Origin: Podarcis vaucheri
Taxonomy: Eukaryota
Length of the DNA stretch: 64,000 nt
Assembly: GCA_965113315.1 (NCBI GenBank)
Contig: OZ220364.1
Strand: one strand, 5' to 3'
Part shown: positions 2,639 to 51,449 of the stretch, piece after piece
How positions within the stretch are numbered: the first letter of the stretch is position 1
Layout of the letters: every line of letters starts with the position of its first letter
Translations under genes and position numbers: made by a program
Notes under the pieces: model-generated
Databases searched by the model: none
The model's input: only the letters and a program-made list of their open reading frames with translations
Told to the model about the DNA's origin: nothing

Positions 2639-32673
<30,035 letters not shown>

Positions 32674-40468: not shown

Positions 40469-43400
40469 CTGGAACAGGTAAGGCAAGAAACATTAGCTTT
40501 CATGAACTAGACATGAAAACCCAGTAACGTCTGGACTGTGATCTGACTATTCTATCCCTCTTTGCAGCCTTGCAAACAACTTTATAATTAGGGAAGCTTT
40601 TGTTTAGGGAAGCTTTTAATGTTTGATGTATTACAGTATTTTAATATTTTTTGGGAAGCCACCCAGAGTGGCTGGGGAAGCCCAGCCAGATGGGGGGGGG
40701 TTATAATAATAAATTATTATTATATAGTATTATATTATTAGGCCAGCAAGAAATCAGCATTAGTTAATCGGTCCAATTTTTATTATTTCTTTATTTAATT
40801 TTTTTAAGCTTTCCATTTTATACCAATTAAAACCAAAGAAGAAGCCAAATACAGATGCCAAATTATATATATTTTTGGCATCTGTATTTGGCTCCTGCAG
40901 CCAATCGGAAGCCACGCCTTGGTTTTTGAATGGTTTCGGGAGTAAAACGGACTCCTGGGACAGATTAAGTTTGAGAACCAAGGTTCCACTGAATTTGTTC
41001 TCAAGAGCCCTACCCTTTGCTCCACAATGCGTTGATTTCCTGAAGTAACTATAAATTTCCAGACTGCTAGCCATGCTAAGTCTCTTGGAGTCCTGCAGTA
41101 CCCTAATGACGAATACATTTATTAAGGCATAAACTTCTGTGGACACAGTCCTGCTTTGTCACGATGCACAAAGTGAAATGTTAGTTGGCAGGTAAATAAT
41201 GGGGGAAACTGTAAGGGGGGGGTGTTTGAATGCCAATGAGATGCAAAAATGAAAGTCAGCGATAATTAAATGTGTGTTAAATAGGCACACTTTCTGCTGA
41301 GGCTATCAGCAACCAGGGAGACCTCCTCCATCATGATCCAGAGAGCCGCTGCTATGGATATAAAGCTAAGTTATACAGTGGTACCTCAGGTTACATACGC
41401 TTCAGGTTACAGACTCCGCTAACCCAGAAATAGTGCTTCAGGTTAAGAACTTTGCTTCAGGATGAGAACAGAAATCGTGCTCCGGCGGCGCGGCAGCAGC
41501 AGGAGGCCCCATTGGCTAAAGTGATGCTTCAGGTTAAAAACACCCGTTTCAGGTTAAGAACGGACCTCCGGAACGAATTAAGTACTTAACCTGAGGTACT
41601 ACTGTACTGTATTTCAGGCATAGGCAAACTCGGCCCTCCAGATGTTTTGGGACTACAATTCCCATCATCCCTGACCACTGGTCCTGTTAGCTAGGGATGA
41701 TGGGAGTTGTAGTCCCAAAACAGCTGGAGGGCCGAGTTTGCCTGTGCCTTTTGTATTTGAATGAAGCTGCCTTGGGAGAAGGTTGCGCCCTTAAGAGAGA
41801 CTTATAAATTTCCAGTTGCTGTTTGGAGGTCACCAGGTTGGGCGATAGCTCCCAGATTCTTGAAGCTTCACCTTCATAAGCAGGATATAAATTTTACGAA
41901 ATAAAAATAAAACAAATAAGTTCTAAAAATAAAGAAATTCACAGTTCTAAGGTTTTATATAGTTCTGGAATTTGTAGACTATATTAGAGGACAGAAGAGG
42001 GCAAAATCTGGGATAAATCAGATTATTTTTCATTTTAAAAAAGTTGTGCAAGTGAATTCTTGGGCAACTCACCGTTGGTGCTCACGCAAACTGCTTTATC
42101 TCTCTGCAGGGAATCAGCGCCATTCTGCTGCGCCACACAAACACCGATACTGTCTTTTTTGTCCGGCTGACCGACTGTTTCAATTCTGAGGAGAAAGTTG
42201 GGTGCATTTTGTGCTATTAATATAAATTGTATCAGTTTTCATCAATGACAATGCACCTTTCTTATGGTATCACCCACACCCTGAAAATTATGGCAACAAT
42301 GTTGACGTTGACATTTGCCTCAGTTCAGCGGCAGTAAATTGGTAGAGGAAACTTTACAGTGGTGCCCCGCAAGACAAATGCCTCGCAAGACGGAAAACTC
42401 GCTAGACGAAAGAGTTTCCCGTTTTGGAGGTGCTTCGCAAAACGAATCTCCTATGGGCTTGCTTTGCAAGACGACAATGTCTTGCAAGTTCCTGCTGTTC
42501 CCCCCCTTTTTTCTAAGCCGCTAAGCCGCTTATCAGCTGATCCGATCAGCAGATAAGCCGCTAAAAGCAGCTAAAAGCCGCTAATAGCGCTAAGCCGCTT
42601 ATCAGCTGATCTGATCAGCAGATAAGCCGCTAAAAGCCGCTAATAGCGCTAAGCCGCTTATCAGCTGATCTGATCAGCAGATAAGCCGCTAAAAGCCGCT
42701 AATAGCGCTAAGCCGCTGATCCGATCAGCAGATAAGCCGCTAAAAGCCTCTAATAGCCTCTAATAGCGCTAATAGCGCTAATCCGCTAATCCTTCAATGG
42801 GCTTGCTTCGCAAGACGGAAAAAAACCGCTAGACGAAGAGAATCACAGAACGGATTCTTTTCGTCTTGCGAGGCACCACTGTATTGCTGAATCTGTGGCT
42901 CGTTGGAATGGCTGCCTCTTTGTTAAAGTGGAGCAAACTAAAGCAAAAAAAAACCCAATTCATAAAATCTCTCTAGGTGAGGGTTTGCTCGTTCATTCTC
43001 AGCACATGGAGCCACACTATGTGCAACTCATTCAGCACTGAAGTAAACTGGCAAAACTGCGACAGCTCAGGGTGTAAGCTGATCGAATGGATTCATGGGT
43101 CATGTACCATTTTGGATATAGGCACATCTAAGAATGTTGAACCATCACACAGATAAAGAGATGACATTCAAAGTGCTGAGGGATCACATTAGGAAAGAGA
43201 CACAAATTATTATTACTTATTAATTAATTAAATTAAATTTTGTATACTGCCCTATTAAAAAAAAAAGATAAAGGACCCCTGGACGGTTAAGTCCAGTCAA
43301 AGGCGACTATGGGATTGTGGCACTCATCTCGCTTTCAGGCTGAGGGAGCCGGCATTTTTCCACAAACAGCTTTCCGGGTCATGTGGCCAGCATGACTAAA

Positions 43401-46400
43401 CCACTTCTGGTGCAATGGAACACCGTGACGGAAACCAGAGCGCACGGAAATGCCGTTTACCTTCCTGCCGCAGCAGTACTTATTCATCTACTTACACTTT
43501 TGGCGCACTTTCGAACTGCTAGGTTGGCAGGAACTGGGGCAGTGCAATGGAAGCACACCCTGTCATGGGGATTTGAATCGCTGACCTTCTGATCGGCAAG
43601 CCCAAGAGGCTCAGTGGTTTAGACAACAACGCCACCCGTATCCCATGAACCCTATATACTATATCCGCAGGTCTTAGAGTGGTTCTCAGGATAAAATGAC
43701 GATATAAAAACACAAAATACATACTCAAAACAAAAACAACCCAATATTTGGCCACATCATGTTCCTAGACCCCCCAGGCAAACAACCACAGGTGCTTTTT
43801 TAAATATTCTAGTATTCTTACAGTTTTAGACAGTTTCTTTTTTATTTTATGAAAAATGTTTTTCAAGTTTTAATTAGTCTAGTATTCATTCTGATTCAAG
43901 TTAAATAACCCATTTATCTTCCCATTTCATCAAGGCGTCATACGCACTGCTATGTGAAAACAATGCATTATCCTTGTTCAGGGGGTTATTAATGGGGAAG
44001 ACATCATTCTTTTTCCCCTTTCAAAAAAATCCCCACCATTCATGGAATATTATCTGCCTGACCAATGAGACAAAACACCTGCAGATTGGACCTATGCAAG
44101 AAGAGGAGCACATTTACAGCCCTGCTTCTTGCTGGTTAATCATACCAGTGAAGTCGTAGACACTGATCATAGTGGCAGACATAAAAGAAAACACACCAGT
44201 TATTTTAGAGATGACGCAATTTCCTATAGCCAGCAATGAAAGCAAACTGGATATGGAACATGTGTTGAGAGATAAGTATCGCTTGAAATTTTCAGGAGGA
44301 AATTACATTTGTTTTGCTTGCTTTTTTTTTTTTTTAAAGAACAGGTTGGGTAATAATGAGACGCCTGTCAAGACATTTTGAGTACAGCTCAAATTTGTAG
44401 CCATATTGCACTGCGAATACTCCCACCAAGCCTTCCTGTCTCCCAAGAGCCAAAAACGTGCATTGCAAAATGGGGGGCAGCATAGGGAAAACCTAAATCT
44501 CTTCCATCTGGAAGCAATCTAGCTCTCTTTGGAAAAGTAAACCCGAGAATTACAATCAGATTTTGTCAGCCAATGTTGTTGGTTTTTGTAATGGTTGTTT
44601 TTTTAAAAATACTATTTTAAACTTCTGCAACTATTTATAGCCATTGGCTCAGAGAGGTGCTTAAACCAGACAGCATTGTCTACTCTTGCAGAAGCTCTCT
44701 AGGATCTAACGCAGGCAGAGAAGAGTTTTTTTCTAATTACCTGTTCCTTTTAACTGGAGATGCTGGGAGCTTCTGCATGGGAGGCATACGATCTACGACT
44801 GACCTATGGTTTCTTCCCAAGTTGTGGGGAGGGGCAGGCAGGGAGAAACTATGGACCCAACAGCATTTCATTCAGTTAATTAACTACTCGCACACGAAAC
44901 GCTACTGTGTTTGGGGAATGATGGCTCTAGAAACTGAATAAAAAAATTCCTTCCAGTAGCACCTTAAAGACCAACTATGTTAGTTCTTGGTATGAGCTTT
45001 CGTGTGCATGCACACTTCTTCAGATACACTGAAACAGAAGTTGCCAGATCCTTCTATATAGTGAGAAGGTGGGGAGGGGTGTTACTCAGAAGGGTGGTGG
45101 GAATGGGAGATTGGCAGATAGCTGAGATGAGCCTGTTGACAACTCTTAACGACTGCAATAGGTCTTACAGGAAAAGGCAAGGGGTGAGAAGGTGAAAAAT
45201 GGCTTAGTCATGTATAATGAGATAAGAATCCAATGTCTTTGTTCAGACCAGGTCTCTCCATGGTTTTAAGTTTGGTAATGAGTTGCAATTCAGCAGCTTC
45301 TCTTTCCAGTCAATTTCTGAAATTCCTTTGTAGTAAAACAGCTACTTTGAGATCTTGTATAGAATGTCCTGGGAGATTGAAGTGTTCCCCTACTGGTTTC
45401 TCTGTTTTGTGATTCTTGATGTCAGATTTATGTCCGTTTATTCTTTGGCGTAGGGTTTGGCCTGTTTGTCCAATATAGAGAGCTGAAGGACACTGTTGGC
45501 ATTTGATGGCATACACAATGTTAGACGATGAGCAATTAAAGAGTCCCGAGATGGTATGTGTGATGTTGTTGGGGCCAGTAATGGTGTTGTCCGGGTGTAT
45601 GTGGCAGCAAAGTTGGCATCTGGGTTTATTGCAGGCTCTGGTGCCAGTGTCCGTGTTAAGTCTGGTTGTAGTATTATTGTGGGTTAGGAGTTGTTTAAGG
45701 TTGGGTGGCTGTCTGTAGGCAATGAAAGGTCTTCCTCCCAGAGCTTGAGAAAGAGAACTGTCATTGTCCAGGAGAGGTTGTAACTAGAAACTGAGTTGAT
45801 GTCAAAGAGCCGGCCGGCAATAAATCACACCATTCTAACTTAACCCTTTATTAGCAAAAACACAATCTTCACATTTCACCCTTGGCTGAGTGTCAAGCCA
45901 AAGGAGCACAGCAGCTCATCTCATCCCCAGTAGGCCTTGCCCCATGATTCAGTTGCCGAGGCTGAAAGTCCCCACAGCCATCCAAGTCACCTCCTCTCCA
46001 GGGCTTTCCGTCAAGCAATCAGAGACTGCGCCTACATGCTGTCGCTCCACCTGTTTCAGTCCTCTTCTGGTTCTGGGATACCAGCAGGGAGGGAAGCTTG
46101 TCAAAGCAAGAGTGGGAGACCCCTGTGTCTCACCATCCTGACCCAGCGCTGCCTTTTGGCCTCCCTCCTCCTAGTCTCCTGCTTCAGCAGCTGCCTCTGA
46201 TTCTGGACTTCTCTCAGTCACTGATTCTCCCAGCTCACTAAGCCCTGTTACCTCTTCCTAGTCTTTCCCCTCTTCTCCCTCTGACCACTCATTAATGTCC
46301 TACCCCCACTCCTGGGCTCTGAGCCTTCTTCCCTTGATGGTTCCCCAGCTGACGCCTCCCACCATTCCTCTGAGTCCATGACAGGTAAACGCACCAGTCC

Positions 46401-49400
46401 ATGACGGAGGAACAGCGGGGGCTGCAAAATGACTGACACCACCCTGAAGAAAGACCTCTGTGAAAGCAATGCCTGAGTCAAGAGACGCATCCGTGGAGGA
46501 ATAATAAAAAAGAGTGAGCCTTGTGGGTGAAAGAGCTCTGAGGCAGCGTGTGGTTTGAAAACATTTCTGTCCCATTTTTCTGTTTAAAAAGCATCCAGGG
46601 ACGCTCGCGGCAGCAAAATGCATTTTAAAAACAGCCCTCTCCTACTCCCACTGAAAGGAAGGAACAGTACGCAGAGAGGGAAAACACATAAATGAGGGGA
46701 AAGAAAATGAATCCATTAACGCCCTTAGGAAATGAAAAGATTACTACAGTGGTACCTCTGGTTACAGACGCTTCAGGTTACATACGCTTCAGGTTACAGA
46801 CTCCGCTAACCCAGAAATATTACCTCGGGTTAAGAACTTCGCTTCAGGATGAGAACAGAATTCGTGCTCCGGCGGCGCGGCGGCAGCAGGAGGCCCCATT
46901 AGCTAAAGTGGTGCTCCAGGTTAAGAGTAGTTTCAGGTTAAGAACGGACCTCCGGAACGAATTAAGTTCTTAACCCGAGGTACCACTGTATTAAAAATTT
47001 AACCTGGAACAGTCTAAATCTGTGAGATGGGCGTCCACAAGAGAACATGAGCAAACCGACTCTTCTGCAGTGGCTCCACAACTTTGGAACTCCCTGGTAC
47101 TAGAGCTGCGGGAGGCAGCTGCACTTCAGCCTTGTTGCAGTGCCTTAAAGACTCATTGGTTTTCACTGGCCTCCCCACAGCAATTTTTTGTCTCGCTCAC
47201 TGGATGGAGGCAGGAATCTCGTTATGCTGTTGAAGTTCTGAGCCTGTTTTATTCTTGGCTTTAGTAGTAACTGGTATTTTATACCTACAGTGTTTAACGG
47301 TTGCTTCATTTTTAAGGTTGTTAGGCCGAAGAATCGATGCTTTTGAATTATGGTGCTGGAGGAGACTCTTGAGAGTCCCATGGACTGCAAGAAGATCAAA
47401 CCTCTCCATTCTGAAGAAAATCAGCCCTGAGTGCTCACTGGAAGGACAGATGCTGGAGCTGAGGCTCCAATACTTTGGCCACCTCATGAGAAGAGAAGAC
47501 TCTCTGGAAAAGACCCTGATGTTGGGACAGATGGAGGGCACAAGGAGAAGGGGATGACAGAGGACGAGATGGTTCGACAGTGTTCTCAAAGCTACCAGCA
47601 TGAGTTTGCCCAAACTGCGGGAGGCAGTGGAAGACAGGAGTGCCTGGCATGCTCCGGTCCATGGGGTCACAAAGAGTCGGACACGACTAAACAACAACAA
47701 CAATTATTTTAAAAACGAAAGAAAAACGACACCCCACCTTTCTCTGATCGTGGAACTCAAAGCAAAGCTATGCGGGGTTCTGAGATGATGGCCCATTCAG
47801 GCGCTGAACAGACCTAGACTAAGCTCAGCTCCAGCAAGGCGGCTGCATTATGTGCTCTCAGGGGGTGGGAATGTGGACACTCTGATGGAAAGCCAAGAGG
47901 GGAGGAGGGCAGCCACACCCAGGTTCGAGACCTGGGTGCAGCAGCCAAGTAGGTCCACTCCTGCGTCCCCTAGCTGGAGAAGGCAGGAGGATGCAATGTA
48001 GGGCCTCTGCCAATAGCTTACCAGGGCCATGTGGAGCTGGTTAGAGCGAGTGGGAAGCCTATTGAATGAGGCTTCCTAAAGCTAAGCATCTGTGTAATCA
48101 GAGACTAAGTCTCTTACCCTACTAATAGCAACTGGCACCAGGGCAGTTCCACAGGGTCCCTTCCTTGGCCCAAACAGCATTGCCCTGGGGACAGGAGCAG
48201 TGCCAAGATTTCTAACATCATTGTCCCAAATTAGAAAGTTTAAGTCTGAAAGCCAACGTTGCCTGAGCAGCCTCCTCCCGCTGGGAGGTTCCGCTGAAGT
48301 CAGCCATCCGTAGCATAGTGGGATCTATAATTAAGGGGGAGGTGGCAAATATTGGACACAAATGAACCAGCAACTGCAGCTGGAATCTTTGCAACGGCTC
48401 CAGCGGAACGAGCGAGCTCCTCTGCCAAGGGAGGAAATAATGAGATAAGGGATCACTCAGGACAATTTAGGGCACAGTGGGCTTCAAATATCTTTGAATT
48501 AAGACTGATGGCTGGGTGGGTATGGTCCGTCTTGGAATCTAATGAAAGAAGAACGAGGAGAAAAGCTGGACTGCAGATGCCCCACCTCTGCTCTGCCCCC
48601 AGTCTGCATCACTATTTAAGAGAAGCAGCAGTGTCAGGGATCTCTGAGGGTCAGCAGCGTGCAACCCCTTATTCACGCCAACCCTTGGCCAGTGTTCAAA
48701 ATTAGCCAAGCGCCAGGCGCATTTTGCACCTAACTAGCGGCCACTTGTGACCAAGTAAAGATGCTTGGGGATCAGGATGGCACCTTACCTCTCCACCATT
48801 TGGAGGTGCATGCCTGGGGATCCTTGGATCTTGACTGTTTTCACACACTAATACTGCATGCTGTAGAATTCTACCAGTTATATTTTATCTGCACAATCGG
48901 AATGAATTTCAGGAACCAAAATGCAGCCTGAGCAGGAGCTGTGAACAACGTTTATATTTAATTGTTGTAGTGTGTCTTCACTGATCGCCAAAGAATTGAT
49001 GCTTTTGAATTATGGTGCTGGAGGAGACTCTTGAGAGTCCCACGGACTGCAAGAAGATCAAACCTATCCATTCTGAAGGAAATCAGCCCTGAGTGCTCAC
49101 AAGAAGGACAGATCCTGAAGCTGAGGCTCCAATACTTTGGCCCCCTCATGAGAAGAGAAGACTCCCTGGAAAAGACCCTGATGTTGGGAAAGATGGAGGG
49201 CACAAGGAGAAGGGGACGACAGAGGATGAGATGGCTGGATACTGTTCTCAAAGCTACCAGCATGAGTTTGACCAAACTGCGGGAGGCAGTGGAAGACAGA
49301 AGTGCCTGGCGTGCTCTGGTCCATGGAGTCACGAAGAGTCGGACACGACTAAACAACTAAACAACAACAGCGTGTCTTCACTTACCCCACCCTACTGCCC

Positions 49401-51449
49401 CACTTACAGTTGTGAAGAGTATTCTCACATTATGAATGATCCATGTCACCGTTAAGAAAAAGTGGTTGGAACAGGCCAGTGTATATATATATGTGGACTG
49501 TCCCTGGATAAAGTTATTTTTCTTCTTTGAGTCCTCAAAGTTCTTAACCTAGCTCAAGGCTGTCATCTGATCTAGCCAGATGTTTAACTGAGAATCAATC
49601 AGTCAGTCCATCATTTGGAAAAGAAAAGAAAAAGACTTTTAGAGCCATCTTGCCCCCCCCCCAAAGCAACTAGACATTCCAATTTGGCAACTGTAACCTT
49701 GGTTTAAGGAGACACATGGTGCCTAGATTATATATCTTGAGTTTCTAACACTGCCCTTGGTGCTACAGGTTTGCCCCTTTTGTGCTCAAGGAATGCTGGG
49801 TAAAATAAGGCAACAGTTAGGAATGCTGGGTAAAATCAGACAATGCGTCAAACTGAGTCAAGACAACAGGTGGCCAGATCTCTCAAGGACATAGCTGTCA
49901 ACTTACAGATCTGAAAATAAGGGACCAGCAGCCTCGAAAATAAGGGATCCGCAGCCAAAATAAGGGATTTTTTGAACACGGGTATGCACTTCTGAGCCCC
50001 TCCAAACCAAAGGCAGAAAGCCCAGCCAGCAGCCAAACAAAGCCTCAAGCGGTGGTTCCCACAGTGCAGCAACTCGGCAAAGGGGATGCAGCAGGAAAAC
50101 CACCGTCACCTCTCCGCTGGGAAGCGCTGAGCAAAGACGAGTCCCCCGGCAACGCGGCCGATTTGATCGGCACAAGGCATGCAAGCTCCACCCCCCAGTC
50201 GTTCTTAGACTCCTTATTGGGTGAGCAACGCAGCCAAGCAACACAGTTGGAGCCTCTCTCCTCCCTGGCCAGCAAGGAGGGAGGGAGAGGAGCTGCTTCC
50301 TTTGAAACCCGGGAAATTTAAGGGACATCATCAATAAGGGACAGCAGCGGGACACAGCGCTGGGATAAGGGAGTTTCTCGCCAACTAAGGGACGGTTGAC
50401 AGCTATGCTCAAGGAAGAAAGAAACAAATGCAAGCACACACACAAAATCCTGCTGGGGAAAACATGCTGTGGCACGTTAGCTAAGCAAAATGACTTACCG
50501 GAATGTCAATGTCTGACCGCAATAGTAGGTTGGAGCCCTGGAGTACAGCACCCCGCCCACTTGTGAATCATTTCGAAGCGCAATGTTTCTTCGGCTGCTT
50601 AAGCTGTAGCCTTCAAAGCCAGGCGTCCATTCTAACAAAGGAAGGGCAAACAGGAACTAGCACGCACGTGCGCATCACTTGGAGGTGCAAGATTGCTGTG
50701 CGATGCAACACAGCCTTCCCAGGATGTTGCTCACCACCTGGGAAAAGAGGGGCTGCAGCTCTCATGTTTAGAGAACGTTTGTCTGCACTCCAAAATGGGA
50801 AAACTGCATTATTTTGAAATTGGCGGCGGCGGGGGGGGACAGGACTCCACACCAGCAGCATTACAAAGATGACAAGTCTCTGTTCCTAAACACATCTACA
50901 TCCGGACCCAAATCCGTCCACTCACAGAGAAGTCCCGCTGGAATCAATGCCTAAGGGCAGGATCCAACTGAGTCCTCTGCAAGTCCTTGCATCAATTGGG
51001 CATCAAGATGGTAATTATATTAATAATGACCTGAAAGACCTATGTTGGCTCCCAGTACATTTCCAAGCACAATTCAAAGTGTTGGTGCTGACTTTTAAAG
51101 CCCTAAACGGCCTCGGTCCAGTATACCTGAAGGAGCGTCTCCACCCCCATCGTTCAGCCCAAGCACTGAGGTCCAGCTCCGATGGCCTTCTGGCGGTTCC
51201 CTCACTGCAAGAAGTCAGGTTACAGGGAACCAGGCAGAGGGCCTTCTCGGTAGTGGCGCCCACCCTGTGGAACGCCCTCCCATCAGATGTCAAGGAAATA
51301 AACAACTATCTGACTTTTAGAAGACATCTGAAGGCAGCCCTATTTCGGGAAGTTTTTAATGTCTGGTGTTTTATTATGTTTCTGTATATGCTGGAAGCCG
51401 CCCAGAGTGGCTGGCGCAATCTAATCAGATGGGCGGGATACATATAGTA

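Follow-up and report, generated by a model that had tools for sequence, protein, structure and literature searches.

A minimal hammerhead motif in a lizard CRLF3 intron, very probably the passenger of a truncated Neptune-type Penelope-like element

Minimal hammerhead ribozymes (min-HHRs) of Penelope-like elements (PLEs) were described in 2014 in Neptune elements of fish, in a turtle and in snakes, and most of them are dispersed as single copies (Cervera and De la Pena, 2014; PMC4209133). In the assays of that study, a monomer was inactive, and dimers and trimers had low activity. In the Poseidon element of Anolis carolinensis (PAc), whose hammerhead is the one assayed from a lizard Penelope, the hammerhead cleaves only with the element's protein and is dispensable for insertion in vitro, and no RNA-seq reads end at the cleavage site (Frangieh et al., 2024; PMC11167929). 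Reverse transcription of that element begins internally, at two positions that delimit its tail (PMC11167929). Other type I hammerheads include those in introns of amniotes (RECK, CTCL, DTNB), which show conservation across classes, tertiary contacts included (PMC6155905), and those of non-LTR retrozymes, non-coding tandem arrays whose hammerhead is related to that of the PLE pseudo-LTR (bioRxiv 10.64898/2026.07.22.740005). An intronic ribozyme can tune its host mRNA, as described for Cpeb3 (PMC10919898); splicing is unaffected by slow intronic ribozymes (Fong, 2009, cited in PMC10919898).

In a 64-kb stretch of lizard DNA (the window), a motif of this kind lies within a retroelement remnant in an intron of CRLF3. 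Its parts, with position numbers after the standard hammerhead convention, are as follows.

44990..45027, minus strand: minimal type I hammerhead (sequence re-read, descriptor, folding, covariance model)
45027-45024 with 44993-44990, minus strand: stem I, 4 bp (GUAU/AUAC)
45023-45017, minus strand: core C3-A9
45016, minus strand: extra unpaired A between positions 9 and 10.1
45015-45011 with 45006-45002, minus strand: stem II, 5 bp with a 4-nt loop; its first pair, G10.1-C11.1, is G45015-C45002
45001-44998, minus strand: G12-A15.1 (GAAA)
44998-44995, minus strand: palindromic AGCU, replacing helix III
44994, minus strand: C17; predicted cut between 44994 and 44993

Read again from 45027 to 44990, the letters agree with an earlier note on this DNA, whose account of the motif (stem I, stem II, core, AGCU) is also borne out by the descriptor and the covariance match; the cut that it had predicted, 44994/44993, fits C17 at 44994. 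A chance fold would account for some of the results. The bare core pattern occurs in the window at chance level (6 matches vs. 6.6 expected), the 38-mer folds no better than its shuffles (z -0.44), and Rfam gave no window match at gathering score and no hammerhead at E ≤ 10 in a local search. The full descriptor, by contrast, had a single match on both strands of the 64 kb, the hammerhead itself, against 0.05 expected per window (60 simulated windows). Moreover, a covariance model trained on 11 motifs from loci of distant invertebrates, with the lizard sequence left out, placed the hammerhead at the top of 18 matches at E ≤ 10 (21 bits, with a rough E of 0.0075; runner-up 13.2 bits). The hammerhead model search that the earlier note had proposed as a check was positive for the invertebrate-built model and negative for Rfam.

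The stems covary among the distant relatives, with both sides changed in 8/9 pairs in a hand-written structure to which the rows were trimmed. The position recurs as well: of the 23 related loci with enough room, 16 have a sense hammerhead no more than 550 nt past the endonuclease match, and of all 42 loci 19 do. These counts are not independent, since one assembly and one family supply many of the loci and 11 of the motifs built the covariance model. The distance from the endonuclease match in these relatives is 174-500 nt, and no antisense hammerhead was found within 550 nt behind the match in the related metagenome loci (n = 42). Descriptor count, covariance rank and position in related loci refute a chance fold, to which we give next to no probability, and confirm 44990-45027 at the level of sequence as a real minimal hammerhead motif, with catalysis a prediction. 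Neither strand of the 64-kb window held a second hammerhead (descriptor, repeat comparison), and exact and degenerate motif scans of viral contigs and genome contigs gave 0 matches.

By all its examined sequence features but the length of helix II, the motif is a min-HHR. It shares with the PLE min-HHRs the core boxes CUGANGA/GAAA/UH in type I order, the extra base 9/10.1, the pair G10.1-C11.1, the palindromic 15.2-16.2 without helix III, a short helix I (4-5 bp; here 4), the pseudo-LTR position behind the ORF, and the occurrence mostly as single dispersed copies (PMC4209133). Helix II, 5 bp here, has 7-8 bp in Schistosoma and 6 in D. virilis (PMC4209133), against a canonical 4 and 4-7 bp in the distant relatives. 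Stem II and its loop (45002-45015) form a perfect 14-nt palindrome, a difference from the min-HHRs of PMC4209133. As a dimer signal, this palindrome was not seen in 9 distant families and is treated as chance. One distant relative (L008:848-890) has a U3-A8 core variant as described for Schistosoma elements.

The motif belongs to an insertion with the following parts.

44938..45783, minus strand: 5'-truncated Neptune-type Penelope-like insertion, 846 bp (exact flanking duplication, ORF remnant)
44927..44937, no strand: target-site duplication on the element's 3' side, 11 bp, exact (repeat comparison)
45784..45794, no strand: target-site duplication on the element's 5' side, 11 bp, exact (repeat comparison)
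45208..45783, minus strand: end of the ORF, last 191 codons and stop (identity 190/191 to protein P0122)
45394..45519, minus strand: GIY-YIG endonuclease match PF01541 (26.1 bits vs. a cut-off of 22.6)
45607..45633, minus strand: C-X4-C-X2-C linker (fits the CX2-5CxxC of Neptune and Nematis)
44938..44989, minus strand: stretch behind the hammerhead, 52 nt, to the insertion's 3' end (other copies continue into a common tail)

On the minus strand the insertion begins with the final 191 codons of the ORF, in frame, and the hammerhead's first base lies 181 nt past the natural stop on the same strand. The remnant aligns to residues 395-585 of P0122, a protein of 585 aa with RVT_1 at 113-261 and GIY-YIG at 483-531; these domains and the 190/191 match give the order of reverse transcriptase followed by C-terminal GIY-YIG. 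The sole difference from P0122 is a premature stop at 45310-45312, private to the copy in the CRLF3 intron. The nearest named proteins are from Zootoca, Podarcis and turtles. The CX2-5CxxC linker marks Neptune and Nematis, not Penelope/Poseidon (PMC8557442), and a survey of 35 animal genomes (31 vertebrates) found no Nematis. The element therefore reads as a Neptune-type EN+ PLE, where the name Neptune follows from the linker and the host group. Both the Neptune-type Penelope element and the 11-bp duplication that the earlier note had described stand, the first by the linker, GIY-YIG and P0122 identity, the second by exact copies at 44927-44937 and 45784-45794; PMC3846280 gives 8-10 bp, compared with 11 bp here.

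The insertion resembles PAc in being a squamate PLE with a C-terminal GIY-YIG and a hammerhead in the pseudo-LTR, and its family resembles PAc in having copies that end at two nearby 3' ends, defining an optional tail, in AT-rich flanks (PMC11167929). It differs in its Neptune-type cysteine linker, in being a truncated copy with a premature stop, known from sequence alone, and in a 3' end about 55 nt behind the cut site (PMC11167929). With non-LTR retrozymes it shares a type I hammerhead related to the PLE pseudo-LTR; those are non-coding tandem arrays, whereas here there is one copy with 191 ORF codons (bioRxiv 10.64898/2026.07.22.740005). A non-LTR retrozyme was rejected on the single motif in the window and the ORF remnant. 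Some family copies form head-to-tail tandems of the ~90-nt hammerhead end piece (joints 45027-45032 back to 44930-44945) with few untemplated letters between, a retrozyme-like layout.

The 64-kb window held no second copy of the family, and a protein scan of viral contigs for the element gave no match. Other repeats are present in the window: a reverse-transcriptase fragment at 10353-10805 (plus strand; RVT_1, 34.9 bits), unmatched by the Neptune-type remnant; a likely young 380-bp repeat in three copies of 92-95% identity (19657-20045, 47325-47703, 48981-49369); and several recurring 220-bp and palindromic 130-bp repeat families. In Zootoca, gene models P0123-P0129, P0131 and P0136 join the family's endonuclease region to PF00619 proteins, presumably CARD, and may be annotation chimeras or exonised insertions.

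Read-level data came from 4 of 24 sequencing runs (X3, X5, X21 and X15, the last an RNA run by guess). Summed depth in the hammerhead bin was 1.3 million vs. 13 at a flank contig in X3 and 2.7 million vs. 44 in X5, that is ~10^5 and 6x10^4 times a single flank contig, where summed depth is no true copy number. The family likely has roughly 10^4-10^5 copies, above the 9,000 given for Xenopus (PMC4209133). In the three DNA runs, depth at the 5' end of the element is 25- to 31-fold below that at the 3' end, the usual truncation slope. The upstream flank of the insertion (45795-46200) is itself a repeat, with a depth of hundreds to thousands against 13-44 at the other flank.

Among the 40 of 152 variants listed, the copy in the CRLF3 intron has at least 8 private substitutions in 846 bp, at which at least 85% of X21 reads carry the other base; these include the premature stop, and none falls in the motif. 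The copy is thus ~1% from the family majority, and the insertion is likely recent. At 8 changes per 846 bp, a 38-mer stays clean with a probability of 0.70, so that the intact motif needs no selection; its preservation would reflect the youth of the copy rather than retention by the host. In X3 (organism A, second sample), contigs cross both junctions and continue within the element for 23 and 31 bases, which indicates a filled site. In X5 (organism C), the match of one contig ends at 44937, followed by 5 further letters, and that of another begins at 45784, with 14 letters outside it; 5 + 11 + 14 = 30 is the overlap of neighbouring 31-mer contigs, pointing to an empty site with one 11-mer. 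From this overlap arithmetic we infer that the insertion is absent in organism C, the joint itself being absent among the 15 of 93 joints listed. X15 comes from organism C and would therefore be uninformative on the CRLF3 intron. The amniote intronic hammerheads of RECK, CTCL and DTNB are likewise type I hammerheads in amniote introns, but they are conserved across classes and keep tertiary contacts, whereas the motif here is minimal, in a young retroelement and apparently absent in a related lizard (PMC6155905). A domesticated hammerhead of that group was rejected given the probable empty site in organism C and the lack of helix III in a monomer.

At 44937, many reads of the family either pass into mixed AT-rich flanks or continue into common sequence (at least 1,120 X21 reads, agreement 0.74). 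The sequence past 44937 in other copies is accordingly the optional tail of these elements, and the copy in the CRLF3 intron lacks it; its tail-less 3' end is a common one among family members. No cluster of copy ends at 44993/44994 appeared among the 24 of 1,435 loose ends listed, and cleavage as the maker of copy ends was rejected on this ground.

The host gene was identified by a fibronectin-III exon at 51.7 kb with 99% and 97% identity to CRLF3 of two lacertid lizards. Seven CRLF3 exons lie on the minus strand from 57.5 to 40.2 kb, and the insertion falls in one intron.

42186..50498, minus strand: CRLF3 intron with the insertion, 8,313 nt (exon mapping)

Exon mapping confirms the sense orientation proposed earlier, with CRLF3 and the element both on the minus strand, and the predicted cut lies ~2.8 kb ahead of the intron's acceptor. 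The placement in a CRLF3 intron holds too, while its number, intron 6, holds only if one coding exon lies upstream of the window, since exon 1 (the first 37 residues) was not found in the 64 kb. VEFS-box exons (PF09733) at 29330-29677 and 32260-32670 on the plus strand converge on CRLF3 and are presumably SUZ12-like.

The idea that a measurable part of the CRLF3 pre-mRNA is cleaved by the hammerhead, through trans pairing with other family transcripts or aided by the element's protein, and that CRLF3 output falls as a result, would agree with the motif's sense orientation and intact core, with a very large pool of near-identical motifs, with the protein-assisted cleavage of the Anolis element (PMC11167929) and with the tuning of a host mRNA by the Cpeb3 ribozyme (PMC10919898). 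Published activity speaks against it, both in vitro, with an inactive monomer and weak dimers (PMC4209133), and in the absence of RNA-seq ends at the Anolis site (PMC11167929). Folding does so as well: the open-core fold with both stems has a predicted probability of 0.12 in the bare 38-mer, 0.003 with the 3' flank and at most 0.002 in all contexts with upstream sequence, by energies that omit the core's tertiary contacts. Stem I is predicted to be mostly unformed in the intron context, and helix III is impossible in a monomer in the fold prediction. For two 38-mers, the predicted 14-bp duplex of the stem II palindromes (-30.6 kcal/mol) is favoured over the double hammerhead (-11.1 kcal/mol), which bears on the dimer cleavage assay proposed in the earlier note. 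Furthermore, neither the tail nor the ORF start, the presumed binding places of the Anolis protein (PMC11167929), is present in the copy, the window holds no partner hammerhead, and the insertion is young and by inference absent in organism C. We consider such cutting very unlikely. An upstream hairpin pairs the splice acceptor with the core (-10.6 kcal/mol); as an off switch it was rejected, with 67/200 shuffles equally good.

Two claims about activity change accordingly. The statement that these hammerheads cleave efficiently only as dimers was too generous, considering that dimers are weak and the monomer inactive (PMC4209133) and that the Anolis form needs protein (PMC11167929). Cutting of the nascent CRLF3 intron in trans finds no support in a copy that is single, young, probably lineage-restricted and one of a huge family, with stem I predicted to be mostly unformed.

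The insertion might instead act on CRLF3 through other signals that it carries on the sense strand, namely a TATA-like promoter, two AATAAA hexamers and a splice acceptor. The promoter and the acceptor lie shortly before the hammerhead.

45054..45060, minus strand: TATA-like box, candidate pseudo-LTR promoter; its first base lies 33 nt before the hammerhead's first base
45029..45034, minus strand: putative acceptor-like pyrimidine tract with CAG, separated from stem I by one base

The starts of family copies, at 45026-45029, lie behind the TATA-like box at 45060, and the acceptor at 45029 has a pyrimidine share of 0.69, compared with 0.56-0.81 in four real CRLF3 acceptors; there is also one GTAAG donor at 45168, and AATAAA occurs at 45630 and 45442. 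All of these are short consensus matches, though, and no spliced joint between the sites appears among the 15 of 93 joints listed, so that an effect by this route seems unlikely.

The starts of the family copies are the more useful result. Among the 24 of 1,435 loose ends listed, the match of copies stops at 45027, the first base of stem I, in all four runs (at least 60, 181, 63 and 4 records), with neighbouring stops at 45029 (at least 110 reads) and 45026 (at least 27 contigs). Beyond 45027 the sequence is mixed (agreement 0.36-0.55) and AT-rich in the DNA runs, which indicates many separate insertions. The first loose letter at 45027 is C on the plus strand, an extra G on the element strand, in 4/4 runs and 3/3 listed joints, one of which is a single C; these are consensus letters rather than per-base counts, and by construction the first letter cannot be A. 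At 45029 the first loose letter is A, and at 45026 it is T. In L1, capped full-length copies are recognised by an additional G at their 5' junction (PMC11702581), and a TATA box with an initiator was earlier predicted in a rotifer pseudo-LTR (PMC3846280). Here TATAWA has a background of 0.0012 per position, and the TATA-like box was picked after the fact.

A capped transcript of the element starting at the hammerhead's first base is possible, if somewhat short of probable. Stalling of reverse transcriptase at the stem is a rival, as is the acceptor-like CAG at 45029, which recalls the intron of D. virilis Penelope, where the transcription start precedes a 75-nt intron by 46 nt and helix I marks the end of this intron (PMC2377424, PMC4209133). 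An AG lies 2-3 nt before the core in 6/9 distant families (L002, L003, L006, L009, L016, L024), against a background of 0.15-0.27. In the invertebrate loci, the one multi-copy family had no copies starting at the hammerhead, and a literature search over mostly non-subscription papers turned up no description of transcripts with a capped start at the hammerhead of a PLE. A more elaborate scheme, which we regard as rather improbable, would have a capped start at the hammerhead with TATA ~30 nt upstream; a large part of the genome's copies would then be short run-off products beginning exactly at that base with an additional, cap-derived G, and the protein-bound ribozyme would be a cap-proximal switch, self-cleavage removing the first 34 nt and the cap and turning translation off. 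Under that scheme the CRLF3 copy keeps its promoter and could start such transcripts within the intron.

It is very probable that the motif is the passenger of a truncated copy of an abundant lizard Neptune-type element, likely recent in the CRLF3 intron, and predicted to be all but inactive; this reading and the two alternatives on CRLF3 (cutting, other signals) are graded as not mutually exclusive. Exact 11-bp copies of the target flank the 3' part of the element, which comprises the endonuclease remnant, the pseudo-LTR and the hammerhead. By analogy with the Anolis element (PMC11167929), the element's protein would have nicked the target, begun reverse transcription inside its own, uncut RNA at a point ~55 nt past the predicted cut, and copied 846 nt before it stopped. 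The motif would then be copied into CRLF3 pre-mRNA. There a lone hammerhead, unable to form stem III, would depend on meeting a second hammerhead or the element's protein in the brief interval until the next exon, 2.8 kb downstream, has been transcribed and spliced; cleavage is expected to be rare at most. Against the passenger reading, the family is abundant and seemingly present in RNA-like contigs (X15), so that partners and protein may exist in germ cells.

The locus adds one more copy of a motif spread by PLEs, reptiles included, and as it stands matters little. Were host pre-mRNAs cleaved by passengers of this kind, a lizard genome would contain conditional intron cutters by the thousand, for which there is no support here. 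The role of the Penelope hammerhead is described as unsettled in PMC8557442 and PMC11167929, and copy ends that mark a capped start would make a role in cap removal directly testable.
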